Assembly (NCBI GenBank): GCA_049287725.1 | Contig: JBAQGJ010000123.1 | Span: 19,901 to 83,900, forward strand | DNA: 64,000 nt | From: Candidatus Acidiferrales bacterium | GTDB lineage: Bacteria > Acidobacteriota > Terriglobia > Acidiferrales > UBA7541 | Reading direction: 5' to 3' | Notes under the pieces: generated by a model | Database searches by the model: none | Told to the model about the DNA's origin: nothing | What the model saw: the letters and a program-made list of their open reading frames with translations, nothing else | In this document: piece by piece, positions 42,744-52,205 of the stretch | Numbering within the stretch: the first letter of the stretch is position 1 | Layout of the letters: the number at the start of each line of letters is the position of its first letter | Program-made: the position numbers and the translations under genes

Positions 42744-43076
42744 ATGACAAACGCGAATGGCGGGTCGTCGATCACATCCACTCTTGAGGGCGTGCGGTTC
42801 CCCGAAGCGGGAGCGACGCTGCTAATCGTGCTGGGTATCGTCTTTCAATTGGGCGAACTCGGCTACGGCCATCTCCAATCCGGCAACTTGTGGTTCTTTT
42901 CCACGATGTTGACGGACATTTGGAATATCCTCTCGTTGCGGCTCGATGTTCCAGGCCTCAGCGAACTGCTGCGCTACTGGCCGCTGGCGCTGGTCGGCCT
43001 GGGACTCGCTATCTTGCTCGCGACGCACGAAAACCGTTCGCGTCGTGCGCGCAGGGGAAACCGGCATGCCCAATGA
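42744..43076 (+). CDS. Small membrane protein, first gene of the LiaF-like/LytS/LytTR module
   Basis: ATG 42744 has GGGAGA 8 nt upstream; the ORF is open from 42657. Two or three TM helices. Overlaps the next gene by 11 nt. Confidence 0.45.
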   Translation: MTNANGGSSITSTLEGVRFPEAGATLLIVLGIVFQLGELGYGHLQSGNLWFFSTMLTDIWNILSLRLDVPGLSELLRYWPLALVGLGLAILLATHENRSRRARRGNRHAQ

Positions 43077-43809
43077 CATCCGGCGGTTCAGCTGGAGCTT
43101 CACGTTCGGCGCGCTCATCGTCGCCGCCGGCGTGGTGCTCCTTCTCGATCAGCAAGGGCTGATTAACGCTGACCGCGTCTTTACTTTCTTCTGGCCCGCC
43201 GTGTTCATTCTTGGCGGATCGGTGATGCTGGCAGACTGCCGCGGCAACGGCGGGCGCGGCGTCACGGGCATTGTGTTCGTTACCATTGGCGTCATCATTT
43301 TGCTGGACAGCCTCGGCATTGCTCACATTCGCTTTGAAACCTTCTGGCCTGTCATCGTCATAGGTGCCGGGCTCCTGATGATCTGGCGAGCGATTGGCGC
43401 TCCACGGTCAGGGCCGCCAGGCCGGAATTGGTGGGACTATCTGCGCTCGGGAGGATCCGGAGATTCCGGCGCGGAATTCAATCATGTGGCGATCTTCAGC
43501 GGATTTAAACGGCGCACCACTTCCAAGAACTTTAAGGGCGGAAAAATACTCGCGGTTTTCGGTGGTTTTCAGATTGACCTAAGGCAAGCCGATATTGAAG
43601 GTGACTCCGCCGAAGTGGAGGCCATCTCCTTGATGGGCGGAGGCGAAATCAAGGTCCCCTATACTTGGAACGTCGTAATGGAAGGCATCGGCTTCATGGG
43701 CGGATACGTTGACGAAACCGATCAGACCCCGCCCCCGGCTGGCACACCCCGAAAGCAATTAATCGTGAAGGGAGCCGCCATTATGGGCGGCATCGTCGTC
43801 AAAAACTAA
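43066..43809 (+). CDS. LiaF-like (DUF2154-type) membrane protein
   Basis: N-terminal 4 TM. The C-terminal segment GGFQIDLRQADIEG..AEVEAISLMGGGEIKVPYTWNV...G.GFMGG resembles the LiaF/YvqF C-terminal domain. Confidence 0.6.
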   Translation: MPNDIRRFSWSFTFGALIVAAGVVLLLDQQGLINADRVFTFFWPAVFILGGSVMLADCRGNGGRGVTGIVFVTIGVIILLDSLGIAHIRFETFWPVIVIGAGLLMIWRAIGAPRSGPPGRNWWDYLRSGGSGDSGAEFNHVAIFSGFKRRTTSKNFKGGKILAVFGGFQIDLRQADIEGDSAEVEAISLMGGGEIKVPYTWNVVMEGIGFMGGYVDETDQTPPPAGTPRKQLIVKGAAIMGGIVVKN

Positions 43810-43817
43810 GCGCGAAA

Positions 43818-44888
43818 ATGCACCCCATTCTCAGCAGCCCTCGGCGCATCGTGATTTACCTGTTCGCTTGGATTCCGATCACGGGCCTGTTGGCCTATCT
43901 GCTCACGGTTTTCCACGAGATTACCAACGTCGAAGCGGTAGCCTTGGCCGTTCCGCTTTGCTTCCTGCACGCGCTCGTCTGTCTATCGTCGTGGTATTCC
44001 TGCCGTGGCAATCCTCTCGATAAATACAGTCTCGGGCGCCTGCTGAGCACCCACCTCACCGCCGCCCTCGTCTCAGCCATCATCTGGGCTTTCGCCGCAG
44101 TAGGCCTTGCCAGCTCACTGTCGAGACTTCCGTCGTTCGAAGGCTTGAGCAGGCGCTTCCGCCCCGAAATTCCGGTGATGATCGTCACTGGCCTGCTGCT
44201 TTACTTGCTATGGGTGGCTCTCTACTACGTAATTATCGGCGTCGAGGCCTCACGCGAAGCGGAAGCGCGTGTGATGAAAGCTAGTGTCCTGGCGCGCGAC
44301 GCTGAACTGCGCGCACTGAAAGCGCAGGTCAATCCGCACTTCCTCTTCAATAGCCTGAATTCCATCAGCGCGCTGACCACCTCCGACGCTTCGAAGGCCC
44401 GGGAAATGTGCATCCTTCTCGGCGATTTCCTGCGCCGTACGCTGGGCCTGGGCGAGAAAGCCGCAATCCCGCTCGAAGAAGAACTGTCCCTGATCCGCGC
44501 GTTTCTCGCCGTCGAAAAAGTTCGCTTCGGCTCGCGCATCCAAATGGAAGAAAATATTGATAAGGCCGCGCTGGCCGTACCCGTCCCACCGCTGCTCTTG
44601 CAGCCTCTCGTGGAAAACGCAGTCGTGCACGGAATAGCCAATCTCGTCGAAGGCGGCTGGATTCGTCTGGACGTCAGGTCGCAAAATGGCGACTTGGCCA
44701 TCACTGTCGAAAATAGCTTCGACCCCGAAGCTCCGCCTCGCCGAAAAAGCGGCGTCGGCCTAGTCAATGTCCGCCAACGCCTCCAGGCTCGCTACGGCAA
44801 TCGCGCCACATTTGGCGTCCTGACGGAAGGTGATCGTTACCGCGTGGCCTTGACGCTCCCGGCGGAAAGCGAGATGCAACCATCATGA
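43818..44888 (+). CDS. LytS/YehU-family sensor histidine kinase
   Basis: VNPHFLFNSLNSISALT H-box, LLLQPLVENAVVHG, SGVGLVNVRQRL. Four N-terminal TM helices. Confidence 0.85.
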   Translation: MHPILSSPRRIVIYLFAWIPITGLLAYLLTVFHEITNVEAVALAVPLCFLHALVCLSSWYSCRGNPLDKYSLGRLLSTHLTAALVSAIIWAFAAVGLASSLSRLPSFEGLSRRFRPEIPVMIVTGLLLYLLWVALYYVIIGVEASREAEARVMKASVLARDAELRALKAQVNPHFLFNSLNSISALTTSDASKAREMCILLGDFLRRTLGLGEKAAIPLEEELSLIRAFLAVEKVRFGSRIQMEENIDKAALAVPVPPLLLQPLVENAVVHGIANLVEGGWIRLDVRSQNGDLAITVENSFDPEAPPRRKSGVGLVNVRQRLQARYGNRATFGVLTEGDRYRVALTLPAESEMQPS

Positions 44889-45655
44889 CCCGCGAAGCCG
44901 CCAAAAAGATCCGCGCCGTCATCGTTGACGACGAACAGCTCGCGCGACAGGTCTTGCGCGAATTTATGTCAAGCCACCAGGAAATCGAACTCATCTGTGA
45001 ATGTGCCAACGGCTTCGAAGCCGTCAAAATCGTCGCCGAACAGAAACCCGACCTGATGTTCCTCGATATTCAAATGCCCAAGCTCGACGGCTTCGAAGTC
45101 CTCGAATTAATCGGCAAGGACACCGCCGTCGTCTTTGTCACCGCTTACGATAGCTACGCGATCAAAGCCTTCGAAGTCCACGCTGTTGACTATCTGCTCA
45201 AACCCTTCGGCGCCGATCGCTTCGAAGCCGCGCTCGCGCGCGCAAAGCAGCGCCTCGGAGGCAAGTTGCCGGAAACGACGCCACCTGCTGCCGATTTGGC
45301 CGCTGCTGCGCGCCCGCCGGCTCAATATCTCGATCGCATTGCCGTGCGCGACGGCACGCGTGTCTTCATCATTCCCGTCGCCAAGCTTGATTACGCCGAA
45401 GCTCAGGATGATTACGTCGCTCTCGCGGCCGATGGCAAGAAGCATTTGAAGCAGCAAACGATTTCCAGCCTGGAATCCGCGCTCGACCCCTCGCGCTTCA
45501 TGCGTGTCCACAGGTCCTACATCGTAAATTTAGAGCGCGTCGCCAAAGTCGAGCCGTATGCCAAGGACAGCCACGTTGCAGTGCTCACCGGTGGCGCGCA
45601 ACTGCCCGTCAGCCGCGCCGGTTACGCGCGCCTGCGGGCGTTCCTCGACAAATAG
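44885..45655 (+). CDS. LytR/AlgR-family response regulator (REC + LytTR DNA-binding domain)
   Basis: VIVDDE, DLMFLDIQMPKLDGF, YLLKPF, C-terminal FMRVHRSYIVNL. ATGA overlap with the kinase. Confidence 0.9.
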   Translation: MTREAAKKIRAVIVDDEQLARQVLREFMSSHQEIELICECANGFEAVKIVAEQKPDLMFLDIQMPKLDGFEVLELIGKDTAVVFVTAYDSYAIKAFEVHAVDYLLKPFGADRFEAALARAKQRLGGKLPETTPPAADLAAAARPPAQYLDRIAVRDGTRVFIIPVAKLDYAEAQDDYVALAADGKKHLKQQTISSLESALDPSRFMRVHRSYIVNLERVAKVEPYAKDSHVAVLTGGAQLPVSRAGYARLRAFLDK

Positions 45656-45721: not shown

Positions 45722-45749
45722 TTCAACGCCTGTTAACCACCTATATATT
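45722..45749 (+). promoter_or_regulatory. Candidate sigma70-type promoter of the GTPase operon
   Basis: TTCAAC - 16 nt - TATATT, about 100 nt upstream of the ATG at 45853. Pattern match only. Confidence 0.3.
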
Positions 45750-45852: not shown

Positions 45853-46419
45853 ATGGCATCCCCGGCGGACGCAAAGCTGCCCAATTCATCCAGCAAAGAG
45901 AACGCGGAAGGCGCAAACGTAGACAAGATACGCGACATATTGTTTGGGTCGCAGATGCGCGACTACGAAAAGCGCTTTTCTCGCCTGGAAGACACCGTAA
46001 CCAAGGCGGTCGAAACCCTGCGCGAAGACATGACCAAGCGCCTCGACACCCTGAGCAGTTACATGAAGGAAGAAGTGGATTCGCTCAGCCAGCGCCTCAA
46101 GGCCGAAAAATCCGAACGCACCGAAGGCGCGAAGGAAATCTCACGGGAAATCAAAGATAGCGCCAAGATCATCGAGAAAAAGCTGTCGCAGCTCGAAGAG
46201 CAGATGGCGGACGGGCACAGCGAATTGCGCACGAAATTGCTCGAGCACTCCAAATCCGTCTCCGCCGAAATTGACAAGCTGCGCCGCGACACCGCTGCCG
46301 CGTTGAATCGTGAAGTCGAAGTTCTGCGCGATGAAAAAACCGATCGCGCCGGCCTCGCCGATCTGTTCAACGAGTTCTCCCTGCGTCTGAAAAATAAATT
46401 CGAGCTGCCGGAAGAATAG
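45853..46419 (+). CDS. Coiled-coil protein (188 aa), first gene of the GTPase operon
   Basis: ATG 45853 preceded by AAAGGAGAGGTAGG. Heptad-rich, Glu/Lys/Arg/Leu-rich sequence with no TM. Confidence 0.6.
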   Translation: MASPADAKLPNSSSKENAEGANVDKIRDILFGSQMRDYEKRFSRLEDTVTKAVETLREDMTKRLDTLSSYMKEEVDSLSQRLKAEKSERTEGAKEISREIKDSAKIIEKKLSQLEEQMADGHSELRTKLLEHSKSVSAEIDKLRRDTAAALNREVEVLRDEKTDRAGLADLFNEFSLRLKNKFELPEE

Positions 46420-46464
46420 CCAGCGAGTGAATAAGGAATCGCGGAACTCAGCGGGAGGCGCGCC

Positions 46465-48306
46465 GTGAACCCGCCGGGCCGAGACCTTCCTTCCAACATG
46501 GCCGAGCAAGCGCAACGCCGCGCCCCTGTGGCGCAGGCTCCGGACACACCGACGGACAATAATCACGCCTACGAAGAACTACGCGAACTGATCGTCAAGC
46601 CTGAGCAGGAAGGCATCGCGGCGATTCAGGATCGCCTGGAAAATCTCGAAAAACGCACGCAGGACGTCAGCTCCGTAGTCGCGGAAGCGATTCAGATGCG
46701 CCGCGAAAAAGGCGACGACGAAGCTCTCGCCGAAGCTCTCGCTCCCACCATCCAGGAAACTCTCCGCGAATCCGTCCGCCGCGATCCGCAAGTTTTGGCC
46801 GATGCGCTGTTCCCTGTCATGGGCCCCGCCATTCGCAAATCCATAAGCGAAACTTTGCGCTCGATGCTCGAGTCGTTCAACGAAGCTCTCGAGCACAGCC
46901 TCTCCTGGCAAGGCCTGAAGTGGCGCATCGAATCCTTCCGCACCGGCCGGCCCTTCGCGGAAATCGTGCTGATGCACAGCCTGCTCTATCGCGTCGAACA
47001 GGTTTTCCTGATTCATCGCGAAACTGGCTTGGTCCTCAGTCACGTTGTAGCTCCCACTGCCGCCTCGCAGGATGCGGACATGGTTGCGGGCTTGCTCTCT
47101 GCTATCCAGCAATTCGCGCGCGATTCCTTCACTCCCGAAAAGACCGAAACCCTCGGAAACATGACGTTCGAAGAGCTGCAAATTCGCGTCGTCACTGGCC
47201 CCGGCGCCGTGATCGCCGCGGCCATCCGCGGCCACGCTCCTGAAAGCTACAGCATCGCGATGGACGAAGTACTCGAAGACATCCAGCGCTTCTACGGCTC
47301 GGCGCTCGCAAACTTCAAAGGCGATGCGGCTCCATTTCGTTCAGCCGAAGATCGCATCGCCAAACTGCTCGAAACCCAGTATCGCGAGAAGGCCGTGGAA
47401 AAGAAAAAGCCGCGCGCCGCGATTATCGCTGCATCCGTAGTCGCGGCGATTCTTCTCGTCTGGGGCGTCTACTCCACGTACTTACTGGTCGAATGGTCGA
47501 GCTTCCTGCACCAACTGCGCCACCAACCCGGCATCGTGGTGGTTTCCTACTCGAAAGACGGCCGCACGTTTCACATTCAGGGATTCCGCGACCCGCTCTC
47601 CGAAGATCCCAGAAAACTCGTCGCGCAGGCCGGACTCGACCCTGACTACGCCGACTTGCAACTGGCGCCGTATTATTCGCTGGACGACGCCATCGTCGCC
47701 AAACGCGCCACCGCGCTCTTGCATCCGCCCGCCGGCGTGAAACTCACGGCCAAAGACGGCGCGCTCGACGCCGCAGGCGCCGCCCCGCAGCAATGGATCA
47801 CACGCTTCGAAGAAAGAGGACCTTGGATTGCCGGCGTAAGCAAGCTCGACGAATCCCACTTGCAGAACTCTACTGTCCAGGAATTGAACGCGCAGAAATC
47901 CGCCATTGAATCAATCGCATTGCTCTTCCCCCTCGGCCGCGCCGAACTCGAGCCCGGACAGGAAGCCTCTCTAGCGCAAGCGGAAAAGGAAATTCGTAAC
48001 CTGGTCGCACAGGCCGCGCGCCTTGGTGAAGCCGTCAGCGTTGACTTGATCGGCCATACCGATAGCACCGGCGTCGAGGCCGCCAATCTCCCGCTCAGCC
48101 AGCAGCGCGCGGACCAGATTCGCGGCAGCCTTCTGCGCAACGGCGTTAAGGAAGTCAATTTGCGCCCGCACGGCGTCGGCACTACGCAACCACTGCGCAG
48201 CGAAGAAACCGAAGACGGACGCCGCCTCAATCGCAGCGTCACGTTCAAGATTTATTTCAGCGCCGCACCCGGTAGCGCATCCTCCGGCGCTGCTCCCGAA
48301 TACTGA
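46465..48306 (+). CDS. Bitopic envelope protein: cytoplasmic coiled-coil + Roadblock/LC7-like segment, one TM helix, periplasmic region ending in an OmpA/MotB-like peptidoglycan-binding domain
   Basis: GTG 46465 with GGAGG 6 nt upstream. TM AAIIAASVVAAILLVWGVYSTYLLV (nt ~47413-47490). C-terminus VDLIGHTDSTG....N..LSQQRAD.IR..L...GV.......GVG...P.......DGRRLNRSVTFKI is the OmpA-like signature. Confidence 0.75.
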   Translation: MNPPGRDLPSNMAEQAQRRAPVAQAPDTPTDNNHAYEELRELIVKPEQEGIAAIQDRLENLEKRTQDVSSVVAEAIQMRREKGDDEALAEALAPTIQETLRESVRRDPQVLADALFPVMGPAIRKSISETLRSMLESFNEALEHSLSWQGLKWRIESFRTGRPFAEIVLMHSLLYRVEQVFLIHRETGLVLSHVVAPTAASQDADMVAGLLSAIQQFARDSFTPEKTETLGNMTFEELQIRVVTGPGAVIAAAIRGHAPESYSIAMDEVLEDIQRFYGSALANFKGDAAPFRSAEDRIAKLLETQYREKAVEKKKPRAAIIAASVVAAILLVWGVYSTYLLVEWSSFLHQLRHQPGIVVVSYSKDGRTFHIQGFRDPLSEDPRKLVAQAGLDPDYADLQLAPYYSLDDAIVAKRATALLHPPAGVKLTAKDGALDAAGAAPQQWITRFEERGPWIAGVSKLDESHLQNSTVQELNAQKSAIESIALLFPLGRAELEPGQEASLAQAEKEIRNLVAQAARLGEAVSVDLIGHTDSTGVEAANLPLSQQRADQIRGSLLRNGVKEVNLRPHGVGTTQPLRSEETEDGRRLNRSVTFKIYFSAAPGSASSGAAPEY

Positions 48307-48318
48307 GCGAACATCGCC

Positions 48319-48816
48319 ATGCTCCAGAAGAAAGTCTGCATGCTGGGTTCGTTCTCCGTGGGTAAGACCAGTCTCGTGCGGCGTTTCGTCGAAAGTATCT
48401 TCGATGAAACGTATCACACCACCATCGGCGTTAAAGTAGACAAGAAAATCGTGAAAGTGAACGCCGAAGACGTCACGTTGATGCTGTGGGACATTTACGG
48501 CGAAGACATTTTTCAGAAGATGCGCATGTCCTATCTGCGCGGTATGTCCGGCTATCTCCTGGTCGTTGACGGCACTCGTCGCCAAACGCTTGCAGACGCG
48601 CTCGCCTTGCATGAACGAATCGTCCAAGAAATCGGCAAGCTTCCGGCGGTGCTGGTCCTCAATAAAGACGATCTAAGGGACCAATGGGAAATTGACCCCG
48701 CCCAGGAAGCGACACTCACCGAAAATGGCTGGACCGTTCGGCACACCAGTGCGAAGACCGGTGAAGCGGTCGAAAACGTTTTCCTCCATCTCGGGCAAGC
48801 AATGCTGGCCGGCTAA
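48319..48816 (+). CDS. Ras-superfamily (Rab/Ras-like) small GTPase, 165 aa
   Basis: G1 GSFSVGKTS, switch I YHTTIGV, G3 WDIYGED, G4 LNKDD, G5 TSAKTGEAVENVF. Starts 12 nt after the upstream stop. Confidence 0.85.
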   Translation: MLQKKVCMLGSFSVGKTSLVRRFVESIFDETYHTTIGVKVDKKIVKVNAEDVTLMLWDIYGEDIFQKMRMSYLRGMSGYLLVVDGTRRQTLADALALHERIVQEIGKLPAVLVLNKDDLRDQWEIDPAQEATLTENGWTVRHTSAKTGEAVENVFLHLGQAMLAG

Positions 48817-50889
48817 ATGTACTCGAGTTCCATTTTTGAATCGTTTTTCGCCGCGCAGGGTTACGCGCTCTTTGAACATCTCGGCGACGGCAATTTCCGC
48901 CTCATCGGCGGTTGGCCGTCCTGGTGCGCGGATATCTGGAGCCCGCGGCCCGCAGGCGAGGCAATCATCCGCTTGGGCGATAATTCACCATTCCTCGAGA
49001 ATTTCCTTTTCGAAGCGGGTGAATTCTGGAACTCCAAGCCTACCGGCTCGCTGAATTCCGGCAATTGGAGCGAGCGCGGCGCCTCCGCGAAAGACACGCC
49101 TCTTGAAGCCTCCGCCTACTGGCTCGAAGGAAAACAGATTCTCATCGTTCGCAATCTCTCCGAGACATTCGCGCAGCAACAAGCCTGGTTCCAAACCGCC
49201 CGCAATTCCCTGCTCGAACACGAAAAGCTCATCAAGGAAATCCAGAAGAAGGAAATCCTGCTGCATTGCATCGTTCACGACCTCACCCAGCCTCTCAGCG
49301 CCATGAACGGAGTGTTTTCTCTCCTCAAGCGCGAAGCCCTGGCCCCGGCGTTGAAGAAATATGTCATCTCCGGCGAACGTGAATCGCAGCGCCAGGAACT
49401 GATGATCCGTGGGATTCTGGAAGCATTTTCCGGCGACCTCGCCGCTCAACAAATTAACGATGCCGCCGCAACAGAAGTTCCGGACTTGCTAGCCTGTGCG
49501 AAACAAGTGATCGAGGAATTCTCGACTGCCTTTCGTGAACGCGGCGTCCGTCTGCGCCTCGATCCGCGCACGAATACCTCGCGCGACTGGCACGTAATAG
49601 GCGATGCTTCGCGCCTCGATCGCGTCTTTGGCAACTTGCTGGAAAACGCGATGCGCTACACGCCGAAAGGCTCAATGGTTACGGTCGGCCTGGAAGATCA
49701 AGGCGATTCCGTGCTGGCCTTCGTGGACGACGAAGGCCCTGGGCTGCCTCCCGGCCAGCGCGTCGATCAGCTTTTTGCGCTCTTTGCGAAAGGCAAGTCG
49801 AACGCAGGCAAAGCCGGCCTCGGGCTCTATTTCTGCAAGATCACGGTCGAGCGGTGGGGCGGCACGATCGGCGCGCTAACTCGTGAGCCGCACGGCGCGC
49901 GATTCTGGTTCCGCCTGCCCCGCGCGGTGAAGGCCGCGGAACTAACAAAAGCCGCGCCGCCAGACAAACCCTCTGGAAAAGAGAAATCGCGCGAAAGAGG
50001 CAAAGCCGAAAGGTCTCTCCGTATCCTCATCGCCGACGATGCCGAGCTCAATCGCGATCTCGTCGTCGAATTGCTTCAGAAGCGCGGACATGAAGCGGAA
50101 GCAGTAGCCGACGGCCGCGCCGCGCTCGCGGCTCTCGGTCGCCACGCCTTTGACGTCGTTCTCATGGACGAGGAAATGCCGCGCATGACCGGCCTCGAAG
50201 CGACACGCGCCATTCGCCAGCGGGAGGCGGGCTCAGGCAAGCACCAGATCATCATCGGCCTGAGCGGGCATGCCACCGAAGAGGACGAAGCCCGTTTTCG
50301 CGAAGCAGGCATGGACGCCGTTCTCGCCAAGCCCGTTCACATGGACAAGCTGTACTGGGTCGTCGAATCCACGGCACAAAGTATGCGGAAATCTGCGACG
50401 CGTGCTTCGTCGCTCACCGAACAGCTCCCGCCGGACGCGTCGCAATCTTCGGCGCCGATGCCAACTGCGGCTTCGAACGCAGCGGCGGCTTCCGAAGATG
50501 CTCACGCGCACCTCCGCCGCACTATCGGCGGAAACGAACGGCTAATCCACTCGCTCGCGAAAACGTTTCTGGCCGACGCGCCGAAGACTCTCGCTCTCAT
50601 CCGCAAAGCCATTGCCAATAAAGATCACGCCAAGCTAGCCAGCGCCGCACACCTGCTGAAAGGCTCCATCGCAATCTTTGGCGCGCCCAAAGCTGTGGCT
50701 GCCGCCCGCAATCTCGAAACCTTGGGGCGCGAGCGCAATCTGGCCGGCGCCGAAAACACCCTGCACGTTCTCGAATCCGAGTTCACAATTCTCCAGCAGG
50801 AACTTCACGTGATCCAATCCGCGCCTGAACCAGCCACGCGTCGAAAACCGCAACCGCGCAGTCGCAGCAACGCGCGCTTTCGTCGCTAA
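48817..50889 (+). CDS. Soluble hybrid sensor kinase: unknown N-terminal domain + HisKA + HATPase_c + REC + HPt
   Basis: ATG directly abuts the GTPase TAA. H-box IVHDLTQPLSA (His154). N/G boxes (NLLENAMRYT, DDEGPGL, GLGLYFC). REC (ILIADD, VVLMDEEMPRMTG, LAKP). HPt (AAHLLKGS, His612). No TM helix. Confidence 0.85.
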   Translation: MYSSSIFESFFAAQGYALFEHLGDGNFRLIGGWPSWCADIWSPRPAGEAIIRLGDNSPFLENFLFEAGEFWNSKPTGSLNSGNWSERGASAKDTPLEASAYWLEGKQILIVRNLSETFAQQQAWFQTARNSLLEHEKLIKEIQKKEILLHCIVHDLTQPLSAMNGVFSLLKREALAPALKKYVISGERESQRQELMIRGILEAFSGDLAAQQINDAAATEVPDLLACAKQVIEEFSTAFRERGVRLRLDPRTNTSRDWHVIGDASRLDRVFGNLLENAMRYTPKGSMVTVGLEDQGDSVLAFVDDEGPGLPPGQRVDQLFALFAKGKSNAGKAGLGLYFCKITVERWGGTIGALTREPHGARFWFRLPRAVKAAELTKAAPPDKPSGKEKSRERGKAERSLRILIADDAELNRDLVVELLQKRGHEAEAVADGRAALAALGRHAFDVVLMDEEMPRMTGLEATRAIRQREAGSGKHQIIIGLSGHATEEDEARFREAGMDAVLAKPVHMDKLYWVVESTAQSMRKSATRASSLTEQLPPDASQSSAPMPTAASNAAAASEDAHAHLRRTIGGNERLIHSLAKTFLADAPKTLALIRKAIANKDHAKLASAAHLLKGSIAIFGAPKAVAAARNLETLGRERNLAGAENTLHVLESEFTILQQELHVIQSAPEPATRRKPQPRSRSNARFRR

Positions 50890-51215
50890 TTTCCGCCTGA
50901 ATGATAAACGTCGCTCGTTTGACTTTCGCTTTTTATTCGCCTACACTAATTTCTGCATGAACCCAATACGGCGGGTGCTTTCGCTGTCCCATTGCCTTTC
51001 AGGGTGATCGCAGGTGACCACCCGGCTCTCCCGGACCGCGGCGCACCCGCCCCCAGTTCCGCAAGCACTGCGGCGCCCTACCCTGGTGGCGTCGCGACGG
51101 GCTCATCCCACTCTGGTCCCGGTGCCTGCGAAAACCGCGCCTTCTGCTGACTAAACGGGCACCCTTGCGGTACGCGTGCTTGCTGCCCGGCTCGGGCGGC
51201 GTGATACTCGGAGCC

Positions 51216-52205
51216 ATGAAACGGGGGATTGCGCTCGCAGGCTACCTCGCTGGACTCGCTGCCCTGCTGTTGCCGGCAACTGCGGCGCGCGCCGACGAGA
51301 TCAAGCTCAAGGATGGCTCGAAGATCATCGGCACGATCGTCGGCTTCGAGGACAATTCCTTCAGGGTGAAGACCAGCTACGGATTCGCGGTAGTGCAGAA
51401 AGACCAGGTCGTCTCCATCGTCGTCACAGACAGCGCGAAGAAGCCCGAACCGAACGCGCCGAAAACTGCCACCGCGGCTGCCGCGCCTGCGTCCGCAGCT
51501 ACACCGGCACCAAATTCACCGTCTGCGAAGACCGAAAAGGCGGAGCATGCAGTCGCAGCTCCGCCGAAGCCTGCCGCAACAGACTCTGCATCCAACGACG
51601 TTGTCGAATATCCGCACACGGACGCGCCGTCGGCGTCTGCGAACGGCGCGCCACCTTCCGCAGCGGTGAAGAATCCGCCGCAGCCGAAAGTTACGCCGGT
51701 TGCTGCGCCTCCACCGCCGAAACCTGCCGCGCCGGAGCCGATGCGCGAAGCAGTGAGTGGGAATACTTACACGAACGACACCTATGGGTTCCGCATGTAC
51801 AAACCGCCGGACTGGCATGTGATCGCGGGCGCGAGCAAGATTCTTCCCGGCGCAATCACGGCGATGGGCACGGACGATCAGACCACTTACTTGATGATCG
51901 GGCAGGAAACCGGAGGCAAATCACTGACGAGCGTGATTGACGCCGCAGACAAGCGGCTGCACGACGTGATGGACAACTTCCGGCCGCTCGACGAAAAGCA
52001 CGTGACCATTTCGGGCGTCACGGCAATCGAGCGGCGGTTTCGCGGGAGCGTGGACGAGCACGACTGGTCCGGAGTCGCTGTTTACATTCCACGCGGCAAT
52101 AGCGTGTACACAATCTTCGGCATGACGCTGGCGAGCACCGACCTGGTGCAAATTCAGGAAAACGTAATTTCCCGCGCCATTACCAGCCTGCAATTCACTA
52201 AGTAG
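51216..52205 (+). CDS. Secreted protein with Pro/Ala-rich linker and C-terminal globular domain, unknown function
   Basis: Signal peptide MKRGIALAGYLAGLAALLLPATAARA/DE. About 120 aa of low-complexity P/A/S, then a ~150-aa domain. Confidence 0.6.
   Translation: MKRGIALAGYLAGLAALLLPATAARADEIKLKDGSKIIGTIVGFEDNSFRVKTSYGFAVVQKDQVVSIVVTDSAKKPEPNAPKTATAAAAPASAATPAPNSPSAKTEKAEHAVAAPPKPAATDSASNDVVEYPHTDAPSASANGAPPSAAVKNPPQPKVTPVAAPPPPKPAAPEPMREAVSGNTYTNDTYGFRMYKPPDWHVIAGASKILPGAITAMGTDDQTTYLMIGQETGGKSLTSVIDAADKRLHDVMDNFRPLDEKHVTISGVTAIERRFRGSVDEHDWSGVAVYIPRGNSVYTIFGMTLASTDLVQIQENVISRAITSLQFTK

Follow-up and report, generated by a model that had tools for sequence, protein, structure and literature searches.

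What is a small GTPase of the Rab/Ras type doing in a bacterial operon, next to a membrane protein with a peptidoglycan-binding end and a soluble histidine kinase, and has such an arrangement been described before? The question is raised by a stretch of 64,000 nucleotides (nt) of Candidatus Acidiferrales DNA, the window in what follows, whose positions are used for all coordinates of the locus. Four open reading frames (ORFs) on the + strand span 45853–50889, separated by intergenic gaps of 45, 12 and 0 nt, such that the kinase ATG is directly abutted by the GTPase TAA. An earlier sequence-only reading had described these ORFs and gaps, and both the ORF list and the sequence bear it out. NCBI calls the same four products on the identical metagenome-assembled genome (MAG) contig of Candidatus Acidiferrales, as a hypothetical protein, an OmpA family protein, a Rab family GTPase and a response regulator. 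Layout, domains and motifs identify the locus as an acidobacterial representative of the four-gene module known as Group 1 Rup. The window contributes a new phylum-level member; the architecture itself is already published and named.

Prokaryotic Ras-superfamily GTPases fall into two families, MglA and Rup (Wuichet & Sogaard-Andersen, Genome Biol Evol 2014/2015; PMC4316618). The Asp of G3, conserved in nearly all other P-loop GTPases, is missing from those of the MglA type (PMC4316618). Among bacterial GTPases, the Group 1 Rup proteins stand nearest to eukaryotic Rab, Ras, Rho and Ran (PMC4316618; PMC4915359). Group 1 Rup proteins are accompanied by a cytoplasmic coiled-coil protein, by a DUFX-type protein that often has a transmembrane helix and a C-terminal OmpA domain, and by a signal-output protein, and the layout is given in Table S2 of the same study as DUFY>DUFX:OmpA>Rup> (PMC4316618). 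The output protein is a histidine kinase or a GGDEF/EAL protein and features an invariant Gln in its N-terminal region, which is notable because Group 1 Rup proteins have no G3 Gln; the authors of the study proposed that this residue is possibly supplied in trans to the Gln-less GTPase (PMC4316618). The analogy to the actinobacterial conservon was already drawn in that work, the DUFX domain was left unassigned, and Rup proteins were not predicted to pair with MglB homologues (PMC4316618).

The window locus has the same neighbourhood, DUFY > DUFX (domain, transmembrane helix, OmpA) > Rup > output protein with an invariant Gln, and its GTPase is a single-domain protein within the Group 1 range of 150–240 amino acids (aa) that has motifs G1–G5, including the G3 Asp, and no G3 Gln. 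No stand-alone Robl_LC7 (MglB) protein was found among the four products and the flanking genes examined. The sequence-only reading had held that the architecture matches no known layout; this has to be withdrawn, since the same layout is published as the Group 1 Rup neighbourhood (PMC4316618). It had also allowed that the locus might turn out to be a named, characterised system: a name does exist, Group 1 Rup, but the system behind it was described by computer analysis, and the papers up to 2026 that the literature search turned up cite only the 2014 Group 1 Rup classification. Gene order, the DUFY coiled coil, the DUFX-transmembrane-OmpA protein, the Gln-less G3 and the invariant Gln in the output N-terminal domain are all in common with that description. 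The locus differs in its phylum, as the 2014 table names no Acidobacteria in its Group 1 Rup rows, and in its output, a HisKA-HATPase-REC-HPt hybrid kinase (REC, receiver; HPt, histidine phosphotransfer). Our analysis adds a predicted longin/Roadblock-like fold for DUFX, a predicted PAS-like fold for the output N-terminal domain and a BON-like periplasmic unit, together with further output types, namely HD_5, PP2C/SpoIIE, a sigma-54 activator, adenylate cyclase and stand-alone domains.

The four proteins of the operon

Gene 3 (48319–48816) encodes Rup, a 165-aa Rab-like small GTPase (Pfam Ras, E = 1.4e-31; Rab family GTPase according to NCBI). Its motifs read GSFSVGKT (G1), YHTTIGV (G2), WDIYGE (G3), NKDD (G4) and SAK (G5), and its best sequence match in the PDB is Rab23 (2.5e-24), followed by a Thorarchaeota (Asgard) Rab; the earlier identification of a Rab/Ras-type P-loop GTPase with five G motifs is borne out by the Pfam and Rab23 matches. 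In G3, a Glu stands where Ras has Gln61, so that the catalytic Gln is absent, and the position of Ras Gly12 is occupied by Phe. Comparison of 71 Rup orthologues revealed that GxxxxGKT, T35 (the switch I Thr), WDxxG (with Asp58), NKxD and SAK are invariant. The Gly12 position is Phe in 60 of the 71, and the residue that follows DxxG is Glu in 53, Asp in 6 and Ala in 4, these three being the commonest (63/71). A hydropathy scan gave no transmembrane segment, no lipidation site is present, and the lack of a C-terminal Cys means that there is no prenylation site. The Rup profile also recognizes the GTPases of the same-layout Mesorhizobium and Nostoc loci (E = 7e-72 and 6e-45, respectively).

Gene 2 (46465–48306, GTG start) encodes DUFX:OmpA, a 613-aa bitopic inner-membrane protein with a cytoplasmic N-terminus and a periplasmic C-terminus. 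Its single transmembrane helix (aa 315–343; 47407–47493) has a Kyte–Doolittle 19-residue maximum of 2.38, is the only segment reaching ≥1.6 in all four proteins, and is preceded by a basic EKKKPR stretch, in keeping with the positive-inside rule. This segment and the Pfam OmpA call agree with the topology read previously, a cytoplasmic N-terminal part, one transmembrane helix and an OmpA-like end. The OmpA-like peptidoglycan-binding domain (aa 499–590; 47959–48234) scores above the Pfam gathering score (E = 2.3e-12), with NCBIfam domain-level matches to YiaD, Pal, YfiB and MotB-type models. On the cytoplasmic side, a helical region covers aa 32–160 (46558–46944), modelled by AlphaFold2 as helices 32–59, 61–81, 85–106, 108–115, 121–143 and 148–160; it carries a near-invariant FPVMGPAIRKSI motif and the invariant residues R124 and W153-R154.

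The domain between this region and the membrane (aa 164–299; 46954–47361) is predicted with high confidence to adopt a longin/Roadblock-superfamily fold. In an AlphaFold2 model of aa 1–322, built from an alignment of 98 diverse sequences (mean predicted local distance difference test, pLDDT, 83), these residues mostly have pLDDT values of 85–98. The order of elements is helix, strand, strand, helix, strand, strand, strand, helix, helix, and the model has the two-layer alpha/beta arrangement of a five-stranded sheet with flanking helices that defines the fold. A Foldseek search of the PDB gave the best E-value for the longin chain 5ldd_B of Mon1-Ccz1, the GEF (guanine nucleotide exchange factor) of Rab7, solved bound to Ypt7 (E = 8e-5). 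Other matches are sigma subunits of AP complexes and the Sec22b longin (TM-score 0.78), with MglC, MglB, dynein Roadblock, LAMTOR and Asgard Roadblock proteins lower down; the Foldseek probability is 1.0 for Mon1-Ccz1, AP sigma, Sec22b, MglC, Roadblock and LAMTOR. By sequence, Robl_LC7 is the best Pfam family for the isolated domain at a sub-threshold score (18.2 bits against a cutoff of 23, E = 0.0021), and is likewise sub-threshold on the full-length protein (E = 0.045). A Robl_LC7 match was seen in 5 of 73 DUFX members and Fuz_longin_1 in one, and a search of PDB sequences with the DUFX cytoplasmic region returned nothing meaningful. The Roadblock-like segment that had been proposed at aa 165–262 thus lies inside the predicted domain and stands at the level of fold, given the Foldseek matches and Robl_LC7 as best, albeit sub-threshold, sequence family; as a sequence assignment it stays below threshold.

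In the periplasm, aa 409–468 (47689–47868) form a single BON-like unit, assigned by homology to the BON repeats of the DUFX homologue P0150: the segment aligns (E = 1e-18) to a repeat of P0150 that Pfam calls as BON (E = 1e-8), and also to further P0150 repeats. Pfam makes no BON call on the window DUFX itself. Longer DUFX homologues of about 900 aa (P0150, P0237, P0242 and P0207) have some 5–6 tandem BON-like repeats ahead of OmpA.

The output module of the operon is the product of gene 4 (48817–50889), a soluble hybrid histidine kinase of 690 aa according to Pfam, NCBIfam and hydropathy. The kinase core consists of HisKA (aa 149–202) and HATPase_c (aa 262–369), together at 49261–49923, and is followed by a REC domain (aa 403–513; 50023–50355; Pfam Response_reg, E = 4.9e-24) and an HPt domain (aa 580–661; 50554–50799; Pfam Hpt, E = 1.3e-12). 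All elements of a hybrid phosphorelay are present: an H-box His (His154, in HDLTQPL), HATPase_c, REC, and an HPt with its conserved His (AHLLKGS). There is no hydrophobic segment and no HAMP domain. The earlier description of a kinase with HisKA, HATPase, REC and HPt and no transmembrane helix is therefore confirmed by Pfam, which calls all four, and by the hydropathy scan; domain calls and neighbouring genes likewise agree with its statement that the operon encodes no output response regulator. A search of the window found no terminal response regulator or partner-switching gene near the operon.

The N-terminal domain of the kinase, OutN (aa 9–149; 48841–49263), is predicted to be a PAS-like domain followed by a signalling helix. 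The AlphaFold2 model (pLDDT 78) comprises a PAS-like core (aa ~2–113) and a long helix (aa 114–149) that leads into HisKA, and the top listed Foldseek matches in the PDB are PAS/LOV sensor-type domains (DosP, FixL, LOV-HK and ARNT) with probability 1.0. OutN matches no Pfam family, PAS families included, and a search of PDB sequences with this domain yielded nothing meaningful; as with DUFX, it was the comparison of predicted structures that proved informative. In three independent alignments exactly two residues are invariant, W71 and Q126, the latter in 62/62, 56/56 and 103/103 aligned sequences. Q126 (codon at 49192–49194) is the invariant Gln of the 2014 paper; it lies on the long helix, as do the near-invariant R129 and L133. 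PAS-linked hybrid kinases of the FixL, LOV-HK and ArcB/TorS/BarA types offer a parallel to the window kinase, in which a predicted PAS-like input and continuous helix lead to HisKA, HATPase, REC and HPt. The window kinase differs from them in that OutN falls in no Pfam PAS family, in that its ligand would be a GTPase and not a small molecule, and in having no membrane anchor.

Gene 1 (45853–46419) encodes DUFY, a soluble coiled-coil protein of 188 aa (ORF list; hypothetical protein of 188 aa at NCBI), for which the hydropathy scan gave no hydrophobic segment and Pfam only sub-threshold matches of coiled-coil type. A highly conserved N-terminal motif, GxNxDKIRDILFGxQMRDYEKRFxRLE, and a C-terminal KTDR..LA.L are its conserved features. 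The conserved parts of both DUFY and DUFX open with [LIVM]R.[LIVM][LIVMF].G.[EQ], followed by RL[ED]. This pattern occurs in 65 of 79 DUFY, 17 of 78 DUFX and 1 of 4704 other ORFs; in the window it corresponds to 45916–45990 (DUFY aa 22–46) and 46573–46620 (DUFX aa 37–52), where Lys replaces Gly in the DUFX copy. A shared binding site and the start of a heteromeric coiled coil are both possibilities for this common motif. The suggestion that gene 1 is an extra coiled-coil paralogue of the N-terminus of the 613-aa protein could not be substantiated, as hhalign gave E = 0.15 and only the short N-terminal motif is held in common. An N-terminal extension of the DUFX homologue P0220 was considered as a DUFY domain and rejected.

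Conservation of the module and variety of its outputs

The module is not rare: the DUFX cytoplasmic region defines a family of 4046 clusters at 50% identity (E ≤ 1e-3), and in a pattern scan across species-representative genomes at least 572 loci were confirmed, of which 80 were kept for gene-order counts. The sampled loci represent, among other groups, Acidobacteriota, Nitrospira, Dehalococcoidia, Gemmatimonadota, Desulfobacterota, Mariprofundaceae, Cyanobacteria, Verrucomicrobia, Binatia and Eisenbacteria. When their ORFs were searched with profiles, the order DUFY>DUFX>Rup>OutN was found in 52 of the 80 loci, in about ten phyla, and the OutN gene just upstream in 6 more. A further 13 have DUFY>DUFX>Rup with no recognisable OutN, and the remainder are cut by contig ends or frameshifts. 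A DUFY homologue lies directly 5′ of DUFX in 79/80 loci, and the DUFY-DUFX-Rup order is seen in nearly all loci with enough flanking sequence. The genes are clustered far beyond chance, and the co-conservation of the four genes that the sequence-only reading had set as a check is found in those 52 loci across many phyla. RefSeq plasmids show the same order. In Mesorhizobium, a hypothetical protein, an OmpA family protein and a Rab family GTPase precede an adenylate cyclase; in Nostoc, anti-sigma factor and SpoIIE genes lie alongside the locus. Both genera are on the 2014 Group 1 list (PMC4316618).

Analysis of the domains joined to OutN indicated how widely the output varies. Among 62 OutN proteins scanned, the window kinase included, we counted HATPase_c in 46, REC in 37, HisKA in 36, Hpt in 32, HD_5 in 5, SpoIIE in 2 and a sigma-54 activator in 1, and several proteins of 146–199 aa consist of OutN on its own. 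OutN behaves as a portable input domain that is combined with a histidine kinase, an HD_5 (HD-GYP-type) domain, SpoIIE, a sigma-54 activator or no output at all. The presence of HPt on the kinase, which had been singled out as special to this locus, is commonplace in this light, the 32 Hpt-bearing proteins including the window kinase. In other lineages, PP2C phosphatases, adenylate cyclases or short PAS proteins take the fourth position. One input is thereby linked to kinases, cyclic-nucleotide enzymes, PP2C partner-switching phosphatases and sigma-54 activators, and such use of the same input on many output types is the hallmark of a general sensory pathway from envelope to cytoplasm.

In 14 loci (L025:12361-13191 and its equivalents in L027–L040 and L072) the gene right after the kinase encodes a REC domain fused to an RsbW-like HATPase_c_2; no such gene lies nearby in the window. 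These REC-RsbW-like genes, the PP2C/SpoIIE outputs and the genes for an anti-sigma factor and SpoIIE beside the Nostoc locus jointly indicate that the module is often coupled to partner switching and sigma control, which suggests that it frequently feeds partner-switching pathways. In two Desulfomonile MAGs (L059 and L078) an OutN-SpoIIE gene lies 5′ of DUFY and DUFX; no Rup gene was detected in either locus, within sequence that reaches only ~0.7–1.1 kb past DUFX.

The OutN profile is weighted to Acidobacteria. It missed the N-terminus of the Mesorhizobium adenylate cyclase (L081:8411-9481) and the 176-aa Nostoc protein (L082:7105-7647), and both of these post-Rup proteins have a DATxE-like motif and then Gln residues in the next, PAS-linker-like helix. 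That proteins with these features are missed indicates that the OutN family is broader than the reach of the profile. In six loci of Pyrinomonadaceae and Blastocatellia (L043, L046, L055, L057, L058 and L061) the fourth gene encodes a conserved protein of 286–292 aa, with a C-terminal PAS domain by Pfam (three were run) and an N-terminal part of ~175 aa that the OutN profile does not match; this protein may be a divergent input domain with no enzymatic output. Genes split into overlapping ORFs were seen in seven MAG loci (L042, L001, L010, L013, L014, L021 and L033). An in-frame fusion of the DUFX tail, Rup and kinase in L042 was discounted, as this locus is full of frameshifts, and the broken genes in L042 and the other six look like assembly frameshift errors and not fusions.

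A proposed signalling route and its alternatives

The best explanation of these data, which we consider probable, is that in this Group 1 Rup locus a signal runs, as we infer, from the envelope through DUFX/DUFY to Rup and on through the PAS-like domain to the phosphorelay. A flow from envelope to GTPase to kinase is a reasonable reading, and is in line with the hypothesis published for the Group 1 Rup system. The periplasmic BON-like and OmpA-like domains of DUFX would contact the envelope and peptidoglycan, and its cytoplasmic helical region and longin/Roadblock-like domain, probably with DUFY, would form a membrane-anchored platform on which soluble Rup docks. With no catalytic Gln and a bulky Phe where Ras has Gly12, Rup would lack what classical GTP hydrolysis, intrinsic or aided by an Arg finger, requires, and its nucleotide state should depend on partners. 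The longin/Roadblock platform is the likeliest candidate for its exchange factor or state-setter, in analogy to Mon1-Ccz1, TRAPP and MglB. The likeliest effector site for Rup would be the PAS-like domain of OutN with the helix that carries Gln126 and Arg129; these residues may supply catalytic groups in trans, Gln126 following the idea of the 2014 authors and Arg129 being added here. Binding of Rup could then be passed along the helix to the dimer of HisKA and so switch a His-Asp-His phosphorelay that would end on a response regulator encoded elsewhere.

Longin/Roadblock platforms act as GEFs or GTPase-activating proteins (GAPs) for small GTPases (PMC10933270). A more tentative proposal, possible and short of likely in our estimation, is that the DUFX longin/Roadblock-like domain is the long-missing nucleotide-state regulator of Rup GTPases, a GEF or GAP platform. 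As with eukaryotic Rab GTPases and their longin GEFs (Mon1-Ccz1, TRAPP and DENN), a Rab-like GTPase adjoins a protein of predicted longin-type fold; the differences are that DUFX has no detectable sequence homology to these and is a single bitopic protein tied to peptidoglycan, and that Rup has no prenylation site. If the proposal is true, the Rab-longin partnership of Mon1-Ccz1, TRAPP and DENN, by which membrane traffic is organised in eukaryotes, would already be found in bacteria as an operon-encoded envelope-signalling device, and the pair could have entered eukaryotes with the Rab/Ras ancestor, which has been proposed to stem from Group 1 Rup by horizontal transfer (PMC4316618). A corollary would be that the invariant Gln of the PAS-like domain and the near-invariant Arg three residues on form a trans-acting catalytic pair, a new kind of GAP.

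Several points weigh against the signalling route that we infer. The direction of signal flow is assumed, and no experimental study of any Group 1 Rup system was found in a literature search that covered subscription journals thinly. The longin/Roadblock assignment of DUFX rests on predicted structure, its sequence-profile support being sub-threshold, and a profile search of PDB sequences with this domain gave no related chain. For OutN, the PAS matches reach only E ~1e-3 and TM-scores of 0.45–0.65, and the stretch of helix around Q126 is modelled at low confidence (pLDDT 53–59). Some loci have no recognisable OutN gene or no adjacent Rup gene. None of 270 DUFX-family proteins is fused to a Rup, OutN or DUFY domain, so that fusions provide no evidence for direct contact.

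Among the alternatives, one that we judge unlikely, yet worth serious consideration, gives DUFX the role of a spatial landmark or of a GAP like MglB; Rup would then act mainly in localisation or polarity and recruit the OutN enzyme to particular envelope sites, and would not be an on/off transmitter of an envelope signal. MglB, MglC and Rag/LAMTOR Roadblock proteins do appear among the Foldseek matches of DUFX, a peptidoglycan-anchored DUFX would be immobile as suits a landmark, and MglA, the only well-studied bacterial small GTPase, is a polarity factor under a Roadblock GAP. However, in structure the DUFX domain comes closest to longin-type domains of GEFs and adaptors and not to MglB, Rup stands outside the MglA family with its G3 Asp kept, and the fourth gene almost always encodes a signalling enzyme whose outputs are interchangeable, as is typical of sensory pathways. 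Rup might also be a pseudo-switch, which for want of Gln61 and with Phe at position 12 would never hydrolyse GTP at a useful rate, and thus a permanently GTP-bound adaptor that bridges DUFX and the output protein, the signal then travelling by a conformational change of DUFX. In Ras, substitutions at the equivalents of Gly12 and Gln61 abolish GAP-stimulated hydrolysis, and deviations at both positions are conserved across the 71 Rup orthologues. All nucleotide-binding motifs, the switch I Thr and the switch II DxxG among them, are nevertheless invariant as in a working switch. Rap and Rab GTPases provide a precedent for catalytic residues that come from a GAP in trans (PMC4316618), and the partner OutN holds an invariant Gln and a near-invariant Arg three residues on; a GTP-locked Rup is in our view distinctly improbable.

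An operon that combines a small GTPase with a Roadblock-superfamily fold and a histidine kinase, together with the conservon analogy made by the 2014 authors themselves, could also point to a divergent MglA/MglB module or actinobacterial conservon (CvnA-D). With MglA/MglB of Myxococcus and Thermus the locus has in common a bacterial small Ras-superfamily GTPase and a Roadblock-superfamily domain; it departs from them in that Rup keeps the G3 Asp, in that the regulator lies inside a 613-aa membrane protein whereas MglB is small and soluble, and in that a dedicated signalling enzyme belongs to the Rup operon. Like the conservon CvnA-D/Mfp, the operon has no response regulator; in the conservon, however, the kinase CvnA is the membrane sensor (transmembrane helices and HAMP, with a C-terminal LPxR) and the GTPase is MglA-type, whereas here the kinase is soluble, has no transmembrane helix or HAMP and ends in HPt, the Roadblock-like protein is the one in the membrane, and the GTPase is Rab-like with an intact DxxG, its nearest solved relatives being Rabs and not MglA. 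The four products include neither a stand-alone Robl_LC7 protein nor DUF742/CvnC, and we regard this derivation as very unlikely. A Zorya-like or stator-like, peptidoglycan-anchored anti-phage or motor complex is suggested by weak PADLOC matches, in which gene 1 pairs with ZorA tails (best E = 1e-5) and gene 2 with ZorB (E = 9e-7). In ZorA these matches cover only the coiled-coil tail, and in ZorB only the generic OmpA domain; no MotA/ExbB-type membrane subunit is present, gene 1 has no transmembrane helix, and the flanking genes are housekeeping genes that are syntenic in relatives. MotB-type stators carry an Asp in their transmembrane helix, and that of DUFX has none; we consider such a complex extremely improbable. 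Chance adjacency of unrelated genes has a negligible likelihood in view of the gaps of 45, 12 and 0 nt and the order recurring in 52/80 loci across many phyla.

For the Group 1 Rup signalling route that we prefer, the candidates are now concrete: for the GTPase regulator, a predicted longin/Roadblock-like domain tethered to peptidoglycan, and for the effector site, a predicted PAS-like domain with an invariant Gln. These fold assignments turn the question of GEF, GAP and effector into specific experiments, for which cultured and in some cases genetically tractable hosts exist, among them Nostoc, Mesorhizobium, Chloroflexus and Flavobacteria.

Upstream region and flanking genes

Purine-rich Shine–Dalgarno sequences, AAAGGAGAGG before 45853 and GGGAGG before 46465, can be read at both positions where they had been noted. 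In the 197-nt gap 5′ of gene 1, a weak promoter-like element, TTCAAC-16 nt-TATATT, is visible on the + strand at 45722–45749 and lies below the scan threshold; a consensus scan gave no sigma-70-like site 5′ of gene 1. The promoter-like element previously placed there is therefore visible in the sequence but finds no backing from the scan, and the promoter and terminator scan produced nothing exceeding shuffled expectation. Rfam found no RNA family across the whole window, and the 197-nt leader accordingly contains no riboswitch.

Directly upstream, genes for a LiaF-like membrane protein (LiaF-TM), a LytS-type His_kinase and a REC-LytTR regulator occupy 42946–45655 (+). Most of the closest relatives have these three genes in synteny with the Rup operon, whereas they are missing in others, such as L006, L012, L018 and L019, and in all distant loci. 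We rejected the trio as part of the module because its synteny is limited to close relatives; it is probably a neighbouring envelope-stress two-component system outside the module. On the 3′ side of the kinase, a 346-aa ORF (51165–52205, +) has a hydrophobic N-terminus, a long Ala/Pro-rich stretch and no Pfam family, and is syntenic in close relatives only. The sole sigma-70-like site of the scanned region, at 50919–50947, stands in front of this ORF. Further away in the window, between 12000 and 28000, the AT skew changes from about −0.20 at 12–18 kb to about +0.24 at 20–28 kb.

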